A DNA stretch of 64,000 nucleotides from Solirubrobacterales bacterium (GCA_035264245.1 DATFQO010000049.1:1731-65730); one strand, 5' to 3'. Shown: positions 50,562 to 63,998, counted from the first letter of the stretch. The notes: generated by a model not told the origin, from the letters alone. Translations and numbers: made by a program.

Positions 50562-50827
50562 CTCAGCACCAGACGTCGCATCATGACCCTCCGAAATGCA
50601 CACTTGCAACTCATTGGCGAAGCCCCCCTGCGAACCAGACGCATTTGCATCGTTGGCGAGATTGATAGACAAACACATGTTCTTGTGAAGGAAGGAACAT
50701 GGTTTTAGTTACGGGATCTATACCACAAATCTAGATCCAGCTCTAACTCGGGTCCGATCACCGCCAAGCAGGGAAGGGTCGACTTGGCTCACACGCTACG
50801 GCGGCCCACGGAAACCGTGATCTATCC

Positions 50828-50856
50828 TTGACAAAACCTTTGACTAGGACTAGGTT
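50828..50856 (+). promoter_or_regulatory. near-consensus sigma-70-type promoter TTGACA-N17-TAGGTT
   Basis: TTGACA 50828-50833, 17-nt spacer, TAGGTT 50851-50856. No protein gene lies downstream on this strand, only the leader-like segment and the terminator. Confidence 0.45.
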
Positions 50857-50861
50857 GTCTT

Positions 50862-51030
50862 GGCAGCTGCTTCGGGGAGGACTGGCCGATGGCGAGCCCC
50901 CGGCGTGTCCGGACAACGGTTTCCCTGCCGCTCCGGGTTTAGGGCTGCACCCCACCCCGGCTACCTCGCCTTCCCTGTCGAGGTGAGCCCGTAAAACGAC
51001 TCCCGGTTCCCCGCCGGGGGTCGTTTTATG
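50862..51030 (+). ncRNA. candidate ~165-nt orphan transcript homologous to the TetR gene leader (sRNA or deletion scar)
   Basis: Lies between the 50828 promoter and the 50993-51027 terminator. Four colinear blocks are shared with 61780-61917 (see findings). Only a 3-codon ORF (GTG AGC CCG TAA, 50983-50994) sits where the TetR start aligns. Confidence 0.3.
50993..51027. terminator. bidirectional intrinsic terminator
   Basis: AAAACGACTCCCGG / loop TTCCCCG / CCGGGGGTCGTTTT: a 14-bp stem (one G-U) with an A-run on one side and a T-run on the other. It lies 11 nt past the stop of the 51038 gene on the minus strand and is also correctly oriented for the plus strand. Confidence 0.75.
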
Positions 51031-51037
51031 GGGGCTC

Positions 51038-59541: not shown

Positions 59542-61605
59542 TCATCGAGAGGTCCCGAGGCGGGCGGAGGACTCGCGCTTGCGGCCCGCGCGGTGTTTCT
59601 TGCGCTTCACGCAACGCACCTTTCCGTGCCGCTTGAGATGACGTTGGTTTTTGCCGCAGGGCCTCCGCGGCCTGAGGTTGCCGCGAGCGACGGCCCCCGA
59701 AGCGACGGAAGGGCCGAGGGGCGAAGCAGCGGACCCACCCTGACAGGCTTCGCCGGAGCAGGGGCCGACGGGCGTGCCTCTGGGTTCGTCGAATCCACCG
59801 CCGACGCGGGAGTCGTAGAGGTCGATGAAATCATCGGAGTCGGAGGGGACGAGCCGGGAGCGGGTAACGAAGAAGACATCGTCGCCGCTCTTGCTGGCGT
59901 CGGCGAATTCGCTCGGTTCGCTGCTTACGCCCGAACTGACGAGGCTCAACTGGCCGGTGGGGCCATCGTAGGAGTAGACGTCGGGGACACCGTTGGTGTC
60001 CTGCGGAAGCAAGCTGTTCGCGGTGGTAAAGAAAACACGGCCGTCATCGGTGAGGTAGCGCGAGCGAAAACCGGGGGGTTCGACGCCTCCCGAAGCGGTC
60101 AAGGTGGGAACATAGGCGGCTTCCTCCCGAAATTGGAAAAGTTCACCAGGACAGGTGGTGCAGGTCACCGTTCCGGCGTCGTGGTTATAAAGAAAAAGCT
60201 GCCCTCCTGCAACATATGCAAGCCACTTGCCGTCCGGTGACACTCGAGAGTATCCGGGATTTGCTGAGGCGAGTCTCAATACGCGAGACTTGTAGGCTTC
60301 CTCGGCAACACTTCGAATAAAGGTACTCGTACCCGCCTCCAACACTCTGAGGTCGCCGTTATTCTCCTTGGTGTAGACACGGGTTCCGTCATCGCTCATT
60401 CCGACTAGTGCCCCGGTAGTGCCATCGAAGCTCGTAATCGCGCTGCCGCTGTTGGTCAGCAAAGTGAGGTTCGGTTCGTGCTCGGGGTCTGGGCCGAAGG
60501 TCCAGCGATAGAGGTCTGGGCCACCTGCCGTGTCGCCGGGAAGCAAGGGCGACTCGGTGGTGAAGAAGAGGGTTTCGCCATCCGGGGTCATGCCTTCAAA
60601 ATGGACGTTCTGCGCTTCTTCGGCGAAGGCCGGGTTTTCCGACTCCGATACCAGGACGGTATAGCTGTCGTCCACCCGCAGGAAGACCTGCTTGGGGCCG
60701 AACGCCGGGGCCGAAAAGGGGAGTCGGGAGCCGTCTACCGAGATCCCTCCCCTGTAGCTCTCTGGTTCAAGGGTCGAGCCACCTGGCGGCACCGTGCCGT
60801 CGGGGAGAATGCCGGCGAGATGGATGGTTCCTTCGTCCCAGCTATAGGCGTTTTTACTGGCGTTCGGGTATTCGCCTGGGATCGCGGGGACCAGCTGTCC
60901 CGTTGCCGCGAAGCTGAGATGATGGAGATCGGGGGAGTTGCCCCATCCCTCTTCGGCGAGAAAATTGCCAAAGAAGTACTTGATCGGGTCGCCTTCGCCG
61001 GTCTGAGAACCGGTGACGGACTGCAGTTTGCGATCAGCGGTGTCCTCGATATAGAGGTTCATGCGATCAGGGGTATCGTCGACCGCGTCAGGAAGGTCAT
61101 AGGCGCGCGTTAGGACATGGGACATGTCCTCTGAGAAGACCTCGGTGTAGGTGCCAACCCTGACGAGGTTGGCGTCCGGGTTCCCCCTGGGGGTGAGGGC
61201 GTGAGTCGTCCAGCCGGCCGCGCCACGCTCGGAGAAATAGGTAATGCGCCCTTGTGCACCCGATCCTTCGCTATCGGCGAAGCCGATCCGCGATTCGAAG
61301 GCGGCGGCGTTACCGTCGGCGCCAGCGGTTATTCCGCCATTCTCGGCCACGATGTCACCGCCCCCCTTGTCGGCGGGGGTCACGCGCTCGAAGGCGCGGC
61401 AGCCGCCGACCTGCGTCGCGCGCTGGGCAATCCGGATCGCTTCGTTGGCGCACGCCCCGTCAGCGCCGGCAGGCGGGGCGCCGGCCCCAAGCAGAGATGC
61501 GAAGGCGACGGCGCTGGCAAAAGCCAACAGCGCCCCCAACAGGATCATGCTCCGGTGCGTGCCGGATCGGCCAGCCGTGGCTGCGGAAACGTCCCTTGCC
61601 TTCAA
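59542..61605 (-). CDS. secreted PD40/TolB-like beta-propeller protein A2 with Cys-containing polybasic tail
   Basis: TTG at 61605 is preceded by AAGGAG plus a 6-nt spacer. Signal peptide MILLGALLAFASAVAFASLLGA region. VSPDGKWLAYV and DVYSYDG strands. IDLYDSRVGGGFDEP..CSGEACQG plus tail. Confidence 0.8.
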   Translation of the reverse strand: MKARDVSAATAGRSGTHRSMILLGALLAFASAVAFASLLGAGAPPAGADGACANEAIRIAQRATQVGGCRAFERVTPADKGGGDIVAENGGITAGADGNAAAFESRIGFADSEGSGAQGRITYFSERGAAGWTTHALTPRGNPDANLVRVGTYTEVFSEDMSHVLTRAYDLPDAVDDTPDRMNLYIEDTADRKLQSVTGSQTGEGDPIKYFFGNFLAEEGWGNSPDLHHLSFAATGQLVPAIPGEYPNASKNAYSWDEGTIHLAGILPDGTVPPGGSTLEPESYRGGISVDGSRLPFSAPAFGPKQVFLRVDDSYTVLVSESENPAFAEEAQNVHFEGMTPDGETLFFTTESPLLPGDTAGGPDLYRWTFGPDPEHEPNLTLLTNSGSAITSFDGTTGALVGMSDDGTRVYTKENNGDLRVLEAGTSTFIRSVAEEAYKSRVLRLASANPGYSRVSPDGKWLAYVAGGQLFLYNHDAGTVTCTTCPGELFQFREEAAYVPTLTASGGVEPPGFRSRYLTDDGRVFFTTANSLLPQDTNGVPDVYSYDGPTGQLSLVSSGVSSEPSEFADASKSGDDVFFVTRSRLVPSDSDDFIDLYDSRVGGGFDEPRGTPVGPCSGEACQGGSAASPLGPSVASGAVARGNLRPRRPCGKNQRHLKRHGKVRCVKRKKHRAGRKRESSARLGTSR

Positions 61606-61726
61606 CTCTCTCTCCTTGTGTCTCGAGGGCCCCCTGGTGGCCCTTTTCCCTTAGGGCGGCGGCTACCCGAGCCGCCTCCCTTCTCCTGCCATCGCCCGAA
61701 CACCGGCCGTATGGAAAAGCAGCGGT

Positions 61727-61756
61727 ACCCTAGCGAATGATTTGTGGTGATGTCAA
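61727..61756 (-). promoter_or_regulatory. candidate promoter of the A2-B2-A1-B1-C1 operon (TTGACA-N18-TAGGGT)
   Basis: The minus strand reads TTGACA (61756-61751), an 18-nt spacer, then TAGGGT (61732-61727). This implies a ~115-nt 5' UTR containing two short hairpins (61626-61644, 61658-61676). Confidence 0.4.
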
Positions 61757-61779
61757 GGATGAGTTCTGGTTTCCCGGAA

Positions 61780-61815
61780 AAGACTTAATGGTCTTGGCAG
61801 CTCGTCAAGGGGAGG
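61780..61815 (+). promoter_or_regulatory. conserved block AAGACTTAATGGTCTTGGCAGCT-N6-GGGGAGG (candidate TetR operator / leader 5' end)
   Basis: Contains the inverted repeat AAGAC-N6-GTCTT. It matches 50846-50868 at 18 of 23 positions, and GGGGAGG follows in both loci. Confidence 0.4.
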
Positions 61816-61907
61816 GGATCTGCGCTGCAAGCCGGATCGAACGCCGATGGGAGCTCCATTTAGAAGTACCGGTGTACCCTTGAGCACCCACGCCTCCGGA
61901 GGTCGAG

Positions 61908-63218
61908 TTGGCCGGTTATGTTCCGCCCGAAATGGTCACCACGCCCTGGGGAGACGCGAGCACTCTGCGGGATCGCCGCCTCTCCCCGGGACGGGGCACG
62001 CCGCGCGAGGAGGTATGTCAGAACCAGCGCGAACGGCTCTTCGCAGCGATGGTGGCGGTGACCGCGGAGAAGGGGTACGCCGAGACCTCGGTCGCCGACC
62101 TCGTGGAGCTCTCGGGAGTCTCGAGCCGCAGCTTCTACCAGCACTTCGCGGACAAGGAGGAGTGCTTCCTGGCCGCGATGGACGAGATCCTCGGCGGTGT
62201 GCAGGGGCGGACGACGGTCGCGCTGCAGGGGGACGGCGATCAGCGCAAGCGGGTGGAGGACACCGGGAAGAAGCTGATCGAAACGCTGGCGCTGCAGCCC
62301 GCGGCGGCAAGGCTGTGGCTGGTGGAGTCCTTCTGCGCGGGCGAGCGGGCACAGGCGCGCATGAACCAGGCGCTCGACGGCTTCGCCCCGCTGCTGCAGG
62401 CGGTCCTCGACCAGATCCCCGAGCGGCGGGGGATGCCGCCGCAGCTGACCGAGGCCCTGCTCGGCGGCGTCTCCGGAGTGATCTACGGCCGCCTTGCGAA
62501 CGGGAAGGTCGACTCGGTGCGACGCCTGGCGCCGGCCCTCTCAGAGTGGGCGTTGAGCATCCCGCCACCGCCCCATGCGCTGCGCTCACCGGATCGGCGC
62601 AAGCGGATTCCCGGCACGAACCCGCCGCCCTTCGCCGCGCACGTGCCGGGGGAGCGGATCCTGCGCGGCTTCACCTCGGTGGTCGCGGAAAAGGGGTACG
62701 CGGCGGCGACGATCGCCGACACGGCGGCGGCCGCGTCGATCTCCCAGAACACCTTCTACGCGCACTTCCGTGACAAGGAGGACGCCCTGCATGCCGCCCT
62801 CGACTCCAGCGGCGCCCAGCTCGTCGCGGCGACCCTGCCGGCGGTGCGCCGAGCGCCGCCGTGGCCGGCGGCGCTGCGGGTGGCGCTGGAGGCGGCGTTC
62901 GGCTTCCTTGCCGCCGAGCCGGAGTTCGCACACCTGCGCGCCGTCGAGGTCTACGCGATCGGGCCGGAGGCGGTCGAGCTGCGCAACAGGCAGGGCGGGG
63001 AGATCGTGCAGGTGCTGCGATCGATGGCGGCCGATGCTCCTACCGAGATCGCCCCGATCCCGCTCGAAGCGACTCTGGCGGCGGTCAACTCACTCCTCTA
63101 CCAGTGGGTGCGCCACGAGGGCGCGCGCAGGCTGCCCGAGCTGGTGCCGCTGGCGACCTATCTGGTGTTGGCCCCCCTGATCGGGGCCGAGGAGGCCCAC
63201 GAGACCGCCTGCGGGTGA
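61908..63218 (+). CDS. tandem-duplicated TetR family regulator (two HTH plus ligand domains in one chain)
   Basis: TTG start preceded by GGAGG 5 nt upstream. Two TetR_N signatures: RLFAAMVAVTAEKGYAETSVADLVELSGVSSRSFYQHFADKEECF and ILRGFTSVVAEKGYAAATIADTAAAASISQNTFYAHFRDKEDAL. Confidence 0.85.
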   Translation: MAGYVPPEMVTTPWGDASTLRDRRLSPGRGTPREEVCQNQRERLFAAMVAVTAEKGYAETSVADLVELSGVSSRSFYQHFADKEECFLAAMDEILGGVQGRTTVALQGDGDQRKRVEDTGKKLIETLALQPAAARLWLVESFCAGERAQARMNQALDGFAPLLQAVLDQIPERRGMPPQLTEALLGGVSGVIYGRLANGKVDSVRRLAPALSEWALSIPPPPHALRSPDRRKRIPGTNPPPFAAHVPGERILRGFTSVVAEKGYAAATIADTAAAASISQNTFYAHFRDKEDALHAALDSSGAQLVAATLPAVRRAPPWPAALRVALEAAFGFLAAEPEFAHLRAVEVYAIGPEAVELRNRQGGEIVQVLRSMAADAPTEIAPIPLEATLAAVNSLLYQWVRHEGARRLPELVPLATYLVLAPLIGAEEAHETACG

Positions 63219-63224
63219 GCGACC

Positions 63225-63998
63225 TCAGCCTCCTACCCGGCAGTTGCGAATCAGGGTCGAAGACAGCGTTCCCACGGTCCTGAAGGAGAAGCTGGCTCGC
63301 GCCAGCGCAAAGACCGCCCCTGAAAACCCCTCCGGCGCCGGGCAGCCGGCGGAGACGTAGCCCCGCGTCTTCCCCCCCACCTCGAAGCGCCGGTTGAGCG
63401 TCAGCGAGATCCCGGTGACGTAGGCGACGTCGGCGGTGACCGCGGGCAAGGCGGCTCTGAGCACCGTTCCCCAGGTCCCCTTGCCGGCGCGCATGCTCAA
63501 GATCAGGGTGTAGGAGAGGGGGACGGGGAGGGTGCCGTAGACGTGGGCCAAGATCACCGGCCTGCCTTTGTCGATGCCGTTGAAAGCGACGATCTTGCCC
63601 TCGGATGGAAACGGCGATTGTTCGGGGATGAGGACATTGGCGGCGAAGGTTCCTTCGCCGACCTTGGCGGGCCCACAGGCCGCCTGGGCACCGGCCGTGG
63701 TCGAGGGCTGGATCTGGGCGTAGGTGCAGCTCGGAAGGCCTTTGGGATCGATGTGCCCGGCGCGGTTGAGCGCGATCTCGATTCCCTGCAGCTGCGGTGG
63801 CGGAGCGCCGTCGAGGGTGGCGATCCGGCCGCCGACCGTGACCGCGATCGGCGCTGCTCCCAGGCGCGGGAGCGCGGCCGGGCTGATCTTGCCGCTGAAG
63901 GAGACGCGGAGGTTGGCCTTCTGAGCGGTCTCCGCCCGGGCCAGGGGAACAGCTGCTGACAAGAGCACCGCCGCGACGAGCAGAACGGGCCTCCTCAT
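63225..63998 (-). CDS. secreted protein C2 (paralogue of C1)
   Basis: 257 aa with a signal peptide, colinear with C1 (LRV.F.G...P..LPR.G..P..V..GGRI.T.DG..PPQL..IEIA.NR.G.ID..GLP.C...QIQPSTT). The start ATG sits in an ATGA at 63995-63998. Confidence 0.75.
   Translation of the reverse strand: MRRPVLLVAAVLLSAAVPLARAETAQKANLRVSFSGKISPAALPRLGAAPIAVTVGGRIATLDGAPPPQLQGIEIALNRAGHIDPKGLPSCTYAQIQPSTTAGAQAACGPAKVGEGTFAANVLIPEQSPFPSEGKIVAFNGIDKGRPVILAHVYGTLPVPLSYTLILSMRAGKGTWGTVLRAALPAVTADVAYVTGISLTLNRRFEVGGKTRGYVSAGCPAPEGFSGAVFALARASFSFRTVGTLSSTLIRNCRVGG

Follow-up and report, generated by a model that had tools for sequence, protein, structure and literature searches.

Two TetR units placed on one polypeptide remain functional in engineered single-chain TetR proteins. 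Among natural proteins this architecture has been described in Mce3R (Rv1963c) of Mycobacterium tuberculosis, the prototype of the double TetR repressors, reported in 2013 together with the prediction of 204 other such proteins in Actinomycetes (PMC3711444). A study published in 2024 demonstrated that the Mce3R chain folds as an asymmetric M1-M2 pseudo-dimer, that it binds two non-palindromic sites of 25 bp with 53 bp between them, and that two chains pair via helix 15 (PMC11667970). A cryo-EM structure of this protein bound to DNA is available as 9b7y. A literature search for other names of the double-TetR architecture found nothing beyond these two reports.

Canonical TetR repressors are built differently, i.e. 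from two identical chains with symmetric pockets acting on palindromic operators, whereas in the regulator described here the dimer is predicted to be covalent and asymmetric. With homodimeric proteins such as TetR, QacR and EthR this regulator shares a TetR_N HTH and a helical ligand domain in each half, and with canonical TetR repressors it shares divergent pairing with its (here predicted) target and an expected ligand-released mode of repression. The engineered daisy-chained TetR fusions also carry two TetR units on one polypeptide and stay functional; in contrast to the regulator, they are synthetic, constructed from known repressors, each unit with its own operator and inducer, and no intrachain pseudo-dimer was part of their design (PMC3711444).

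The regulator is encoded within a stretch of 64,000 nt (the window) from a Solirubrobacterales bacterium, and the positions given below are those of the window (Table 1). An earlier sequence-only reading of this DNA interpreted the gene largely correctly but describes a known kind of regulator: the double-TetR architecture and the asymmetric operator are already known from Mce3R, and the regulator is not a new design. Within that kind it represents a new, lineage-restricted member with a plausible operator and an unusual class of predicted targets (secreted surface proteins, not lipid metabolism). The regulator provides a second, sequence-independent family for testing the rule derived from Mce3R (one chain, two different HTHs, a lopsided operator), and the regulator-operator pair could serve as an orthogonal single-chain switch. 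It also offers a genetic handle on an operon for large secreted proteins, as it comes with a promoter and a pair of candidate operator sites and is itself a probable repressor; the secreted proteins of this operon match no described family, and the lineage is one of uncultured soil bacteria.

Table 1. Features of the regulator locus, numbered from the first nucleotide of the 64,000-nt window.
Feature	Position	Strand	Description
Double-TetR regulator gene	61908..63218	+	436 aa from TTG 61908; SD GGAGG at 61898-61902
TetR_N HTH, unit 1, GVSSRSFYQHFADKE	62046..62177	+	residues 47-90 of the 436-aa form; Pfam 47.7 bits
Pro/Arg-rich linker between units	62556..62645	+	residues 209-238 of the 428-aa form; block pLDDT 63
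TetR_N HTH, unit 2, ASISQNTFYAHFRDKE	62676..62795	+	residues about 257-296; Pfam 39.6 bits
Predicted target operon A2-B2-A1-B1-C1	51038..61605	-	secreted proteins
A2	59542-61605	-	divergent neighbour of the regulator
A2 operon promoter, near-consensus	61727..61756	-	-35 TTGACA (61756..61751), 18-nt spacer, -10 TAGGGT (61732..61727)
Candidate operator site 1, TATGGAAAAGCAGCGGTACCCTAGCG	61710..61735	+	on the A2 promoter (-10 box and predicted start)
Candidate operator site 2, TTTAGAAGTACCGGTGTACCCTTGAG	61859..61884	+	same orientation as site 1, starts 149 bp away
TATGTT, possible -10 box of the regulator's own promoter	61917..61922	+	suggested by a conserved block

Two TetR units in one predicted fold

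The ORF of the regulator is open throughout and terminates with a TGA codon (63216-63218). Its product contains two matches to TetR_N (PF00440; curated cut-off 24 bits), both above the cut-off and separated by about 210 residues; a helical domain of its own follows each of them, just as the sequence-only reading had described. The signature of the TetR family is present twice in one ORF, and two complete units (HTH plus helical domain) reside on one polypeptide, i.e. the structure of a double TFR. The N- and C-terminal halves can be aligned with each other over 152 residues (28% identity, E 5e-10). Full-length TetR models of NCBIfam match either the first or the second half, all of them far below their equivalog cut-offs (the best by E-value, the activator FasR, scores 65 bits against a cut-off of 330 bits), and the protein is therefore a TetR-family member without an assigned subfamily.

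The AlphaFold2 model, calculated with a 120-sequence alignment (mean pLDDT 92.9, pTM 0.91), is a single, all-helical body of about 21 helices. The second HTH, whose ability to fold had been named as a check on the original interpretation, is formed in the model by helices 239-254, 261-267 and 272-278 at pLDDT 97-98, and it is as conserved as the first one (column entropy of the DNA-binding domains 1.01 bits in unit 1 and 0.96 bits in unit 2). A Foldseek comparison with the PDB returned Mce3R as the top match (9b7y_A; E 1.2e-9, 417 columns, TM 0.58/0.63, 16% identity), the only one that extends over the whole length; all others, which include Bacillus FadR (3whb/5gpa) and SlmA as the closest single-unit folds, as well as EthR and FasR, cover one unit (about 190 columns). 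With a profile made from 120 homologues, Mce3R again ranked first among PDB sequences (E 4e-13), the alignment extending in a single colinear run across the two HTHs. Given the confidence of the model and the whole-length match to an intrachain M1-M2 pseudo-dimer, the earlier claim that the chain is a covalent pseudo-dimer holds at the level of prediction, the two units being modelled as packed against each other.

In the alignment of 120 homologues, nearly or fully invariant residues occur around the HTH of unit 1 (G62, F68, Y69), around that of unit 2 (S271, T274, Y276, F279) and at several positions of the linker, including P213. The ligand/dimerisation domain is more conserved in unit 2 (62775-63215; 1.56 bits, 38 of 147 columns reaching at least 90%) than in unit 1 (62154-62555; 1.96 bits, 16 of 134 columns), and this difference hints at unequal roles of the two units.

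Different roles would also suit another arrangement, in which chains swap partners and pair unit 1 with unit 1 and unit 2 with unit 2, giving two symmetric dimers, each with a palindromic operator and a ligand specificity of its own. The length of the linker (about 30 residues) is in keeping with such an exchange, and so is its confidence in the AlphaFold2 model, which is the lowest of any stretch. We nevertheless consider it very unlikely, since AlphaFold2 confidently packs the units within one chain, the chain can be superposed along its entire length on the Mce3R intrachain pseudo-dimer, and the conserved blocks of the candidate operator sites are asymmetric (the partial palindrome GTACCGGTGTAC of site 2 is not kept in orthologues). 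Moreover, the same model was drawn as an alternative for Mce3R, and was tested and rejected for that protein (PMC11667970). The suggestion of the sequence-only reading that a fused TetR could bind two different ligands corresponds to this arrangement and is unlike the single shared ligand pocket of Mce3R (PMC11667970).

At the N terminus there is a conserved arm with the sequence TPWGD...LRxRRLxPGRG (61932-62003, corresponding to residues 1-24 when the 428-aa form is numbered), which is modelled at high confidence, and an Arg-rich LRxxxRR segment that resembles it is located in the linker and precedes unit 2. Both may be DNA-contacting arms.

Relation to Mce3R and extent of the family

The regulator resembles Mce3R in being one chain of about 400 aa with two TetR units and about 21 helices, in its (here predicted) intrachain pseudo-dimer with two non-identical HTHs, and in its divergent orientation with respect to the (here predicted) target operon. 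The Mce3R operator consists of two non-palindromic copies of about 25 bp, and here there are two candidate asymmetric sites of 26 bp. However, the sequence identity of the two proteins is only 16%. The N-terminal half matches Mce3R residues 14-156 in M1 (E 3e-5), no better than many single TetRs do, and the C-terminal half aligns best to Mce3R residues 19-174, again M1 (E 0.038), and not to M2. The correspondence of an orthologue (N-half to M1, C-half to M2) was thus not observed, and because both halves align to M1, neither orthology nor one shared fusion is supported. The DNA-contacting Arg53 of Mce3R aligns with Gln70 of the regulator (the family consensus is Glu), and Lys262 of Mce3R aligns with the nearly invariant Lys282. 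Further differences are the conserved N-terminal arm, which is a feature of this family, the predicted targets (secreted propeller and Ig-like proteins, as opposed to lipid-uptake or metabolism genes), and the distance of 149 bp between the site starts, compared with the 53-bp gap between the Mce3R sites.

A search of public proteins yielded 1,527 matches among the scored candidates, and more than 1,500 homologues with lengths of 390-470 aa have the double-TetR architecture; the best 120 of the 1,527 are 387-499 aa in length, and the few of these 120 that carry an organism name are Solirubrobacterales metagenome bins. In a tree of the separated halves, the N-halves form one clade (98/96) and the C-halves another (99/98), with matching inner topologies, which indicates a single ancestral fusion predating the family. 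Adjacent single-unit TetR arrays are common beside such genes in relatives, and the long ORF might accordingly be taken for two neighbouring TetR genes joined by a sequencing or assembly error. The homologue set refutes this explanation, whose probability is close to nil: the same architecture recurs in full-length homologues that number more than 1,500 and stem from many samples, invariant residues are present in the linker, and the trees of the halves are congruent. Therefore, the ORF is no assembly or frameshift artefact.

The source genome (a 2.76-Mb bin, 92% complete) contains 36 TetR_N matches and three ORFs with two of them, i.e. the regulator on contig C49, a paralogue on C87 (47% identical over the full length) and a third on C79. 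Full-length relatives at E 1e-40 or better were found in 8 of 151 genomes of the order, mostly within one genus of another family and in up to 7 copies per genome; a search of 401 Actinomycetota genomes that scored few candidates in each of them found no full-length match outside the order. Judged from these sequences, the family is a separate one, so far found only in Solirubrobacterales. In the related genus (loci L017-L039) the double-TetR copies often lie beside arrays of single-unit TetR genes, and a B-like neighbour (see below) occurs within 1.5 kb at only one of these loci (L033).

The divergent operon of secreted proteins

The regulator is transcribed divergently from A2, whose start is at 61605 on the minus strand, and converges on C2, whose minus-strand stop codon (63225-63227) is separated from the end of the regulator (63218) by 6 nt; these coordinates agree with the arrangement noted from the sequence. 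Since the stops are only 6 nt apart and a consensus terminator scan of 61400-63400 revealed no terminator-like hairpin between them (63216-63227), the convergent transcripts should overlap. Read-through from the C2 operon would run antisense across the regulator gene toward A2. The downstream neighbour is not conserved in the relatives read, and the convergence on C2 is therefore a local feature. To the right of the regulator, up to the contig end, lie C2 (294 aa), a B gene (942 aa) and a partial B gene, which were read at positions 2956-7563 of L014 (the regulator's own contig C49, 62000-69562). The A/B/C cassette thus continues to the contig end and places the regulator in the middle of an array of paralogous secreted-protein genes, for whose products a Pfam search gave no firm family.

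Among the five closest relatives for which the genomic context was examined, four have an A-like divergent neighbour. In three of them (L120, L121 and L001, with 85%, 83% and 81% identity, respectively) an A-like gene and then a B-like gene are located divergently upstream, and in L123 (66%) a large A-like gene; the fifth relative, L122 (71%; a Logan contig), has an ECF sigma gene and a 564-aa gene in this position. Of 80 metagenome loci with 41-59% identity, 27 have at least 6 kb upstream, and A-like plus B-like genes lie on the opposite strand upstream in 15 of these. In the 2.76-Mb genome the B-like genes are confined to five clusters, and a rough estimate puts about 4% of all positions at 6 kb or less from such a gene. 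The association (56% against some 4% expected) is therefore far above chance, with the reservation that the loci, being related, do not count as independent. A divergent operon with A-like and B-like genes also accompanies the C87 paralogue.

It might still be supposed that the regulator controls only itself or distant genes, that its neighbourhood is meaningless, and that the candidate sites are promoter elements and not operators. The remaining 12 of the 27 loci, which are devoid of A-like and B-like genes within 6-8 kb, and the different neighbour in L122 are consistent with this view. On the other hand, the divergent A/B genes are far more frequent than the background would give, and each of the three double TetRs of the source genome has a B-like gene, or a gene for a giant secreted protein, no farther away than about 11 kb. 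We therefore regard the absence of a link as quite unlikely, a judgement to which the candidate sites themselves also contribute.

Candidate operator sites and the proposed regulation

The alignment of ten orthologous upstream regions revealed three conserved blocks: the A2 promoter, 61859-61884 (site 2) and 61627-61643. The promoter is conserved in the nine relatives with an A-type neighbour and, read from the sequence, is degenerate in L122; a consensus promoter scan of 61400-63400 listed no promoter, TTGACA-18-TAGGGT included. From the position of its boxes, the A2 transcript is predicted to start near 61720, with a leader of about 115 nt. Immediately upstream of the -35 box there is a conserved block, AACCACAATCC (minus strand).

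Site 2 starts 73 nt before ATG 61932 and occupies a position about 50-70 bp upstream of the regulator ATG; throughout the family the spacing between its core (GTACC, 1-2 nt, TTGA) and the start codon is nearly constant. Common to sites 1 and 2 is the pattern T.TRGAAR, seven bases, GTACC.T. When nine upstream regions (668 positions each) were searched with a site-2 matrix derived from the other orthologues, site 1 came out as the best other match in 8 of them, in register and with the strand unchanged, a count to be read in the light of the resemblance having been spotted before testing and of the orthologues not being independent. When both strands of the 64-kb window were searched with a site-1 matrix (other orthologues), site 2 was the best non-self match (17.1 bits versus 10.5 bits for the next one), and in the reverse search with the site-2 matrix site 1 ranked second among non-self matches. 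The degenerate pattern, with at most one mismatch, occurs three times in the 2.76-Mb genome (site 1, site 2 and one intragenic position on contig C45), which shows uniqueness and not significance, since the pattern was derived from the two sites. The C45 match was rejected as an operator, as it lies inside an ORF and is probably due to chance.

Part of the conservation of site 1 can be attributed to its position on the -10 box and start region of a promoter. This coincidence, and the fact that the minus strand of site 2 can be read as a weak promoter (TCGACC-19-AAGGGT), would be expected if the sites were promoter elements only. Nevertheless, the similarity between the sites runs past the -10 box into the TRGAAR block, and the spacer of this weak promoter, at 19 nt, is too long, for which reason a minus-strand promoter was rejected as the primary explanation of site 2. 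A sigma-70 promoter on the plus strand was rejected in the same sense: no more than 8 nt separate TAGAAG from TACCCT, and there is no -10 box 17 nt from TTGAGC.

Among orthologues the spacing between the two sites varies from 108 to 195 bp and is not helically phased. In a subfamily of roughly 45% identity the site-2 core CGTACCnnTTGA is present at a fixed distance from the ATG and a second copy of the site-2 motif was not found; the two-site layout is therefore established only for the regulator's own subclade. L122 is devoid of site 2 and of most of the leader.

We consider it probable that the regulator is a double-TetR pseudo-dimer which represses the A2 operon via two asymmetric sites of about 26 bp and is released by a ligand. 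The two unlike HTHs of one chain would read the unlike halves of the asymmetric 26-bp site, which occurs twice, in the same orientation, in the putative control region between the genes (61606-61931). The asymmetric operator anticipated by the sequence-only reading finds its analogy in the experiments with Mce3R (PMC11667970) and would fit these two candidate sites. Because site 1 lies over the -10 box and the predicted start, binding there would repress the A2 operon, i.e. its occupancy would block the TTGACA-18-TAGGGT promoter and with it the expression of A2-B2-A1-B1-C1. Site 2 might serve in autoregulation, or might cooperate with site 1 if two chains pair as they do in Mce3R, and a small ligand would release the protein from DNA.

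The proposal that this protein is the regulator of the A/B/C genes is thus favoured for one of the two intergenic regions initially considered. It gains support from the conserved divergent synteny and from the position of site 1 on the A2 promoter, whereas the region 50690-51037 contains no candidate site. A matrix search of both strands found no further copy of the site in that region or elsewhere in the window, and direct control is therefore predicted only for the A2-to-C1 operon and the regulator itself. More tentatively, we suggest as a possibility short of probable that the regulator represents a separate Solirubrobacterales lineage, with a fusion of its own, which acts as a switch of secreted surface proteins (A, a propeller; B, an Ig-like chain; and C) through two direct-repeat asymmetric operators, with a ligand that is possibly envelope-related or environmental.

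The start codon of the regulator was considered on comparative grounds. ATG 61932 is the start in the public gene call, which gives a product of 428 aa (P0002, 100% identical to the window product). The sequence GGAGG, followed after 5 nt by an in-frame TTG, GTG or ATG eight codons before this ATG, is present in the window and in L120, L001, L040 and L043, the five being the closest relatives that keep the GGAGG block in the alignment of ten upstream regions; this favours the 436-aa form. The block GGATATNNT (61914-61934, before the ATG) is conserved family-wide regardless of frame (it is out of frame in L104 and L115), which points to a -10 box and to an mRNA that would begin, nearly leaderless, at ATG 61932. 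Such an mRNA would conflict with the SD and TTG start of the closest relatives, and the comparative evidence decides for neither TTG 61908 nor ATG 61932.

Site 2 is located upstream of the regulator's likely core promoter with the putative -10 box TATGTT, a position that also suits activation. A protein of the same architecture could be mainly an activator or a dual regulator, recruiting RNA polymerase by binding site 2 and the flank of the A2 promoter, where the conserved AACCACAATCC lies just upstream of the -35 box; the best NCBIfam model is also that of an activator (FasR), at a score far below the cut-off. We consider activation as the main function unlikely, since the promoter that site 1 overlaps, at its -10 box and predicted start, is near-consensus already, so that site 1 occupies a repressor's classic position, and most characterised TetR-family proteins, Mce3R included, are repressors (PMC11667970, PMC3511530).

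The intergenic region contains two further short elements. The region 50690-51037 was rejected as a second copy of the leader: only the 12-mer GTCTTGGCAGCT, located upstream of the regulator (61791-61802) and at 50857-50868, is common to both, and it is not conserved in orthologous leaders. Two matches were obtained in 4 of 100 shuffles, and the sharing of the 12-mer is probably due to chance or very recent. At 50857-50868 it lies at the start of a small-RNA candidate near 50.85 kb. The A2 5'UTR was rejected as a structured RNA (fold z-score only -1.2), and Rfam gave no match in 61400-62100 at E up to 1. The second element, the hairpin-like GGGCCCCCTGGTGGCCC of 17 nt (61627-61643; minus-strand RNA GGGCCACCAGGGGGCCC), adjoins the A2 ribosome-binding site on its upstream side. 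Of 10 orthologous loci, 8 retain it almost unchanged, the loop as well, whereas it is missing in L122 and L043; the gene occupying the place of A2 in L122 is not of the A type. The hairpin-like sequence might function within the mRNA leader or as a further site of protein binding.
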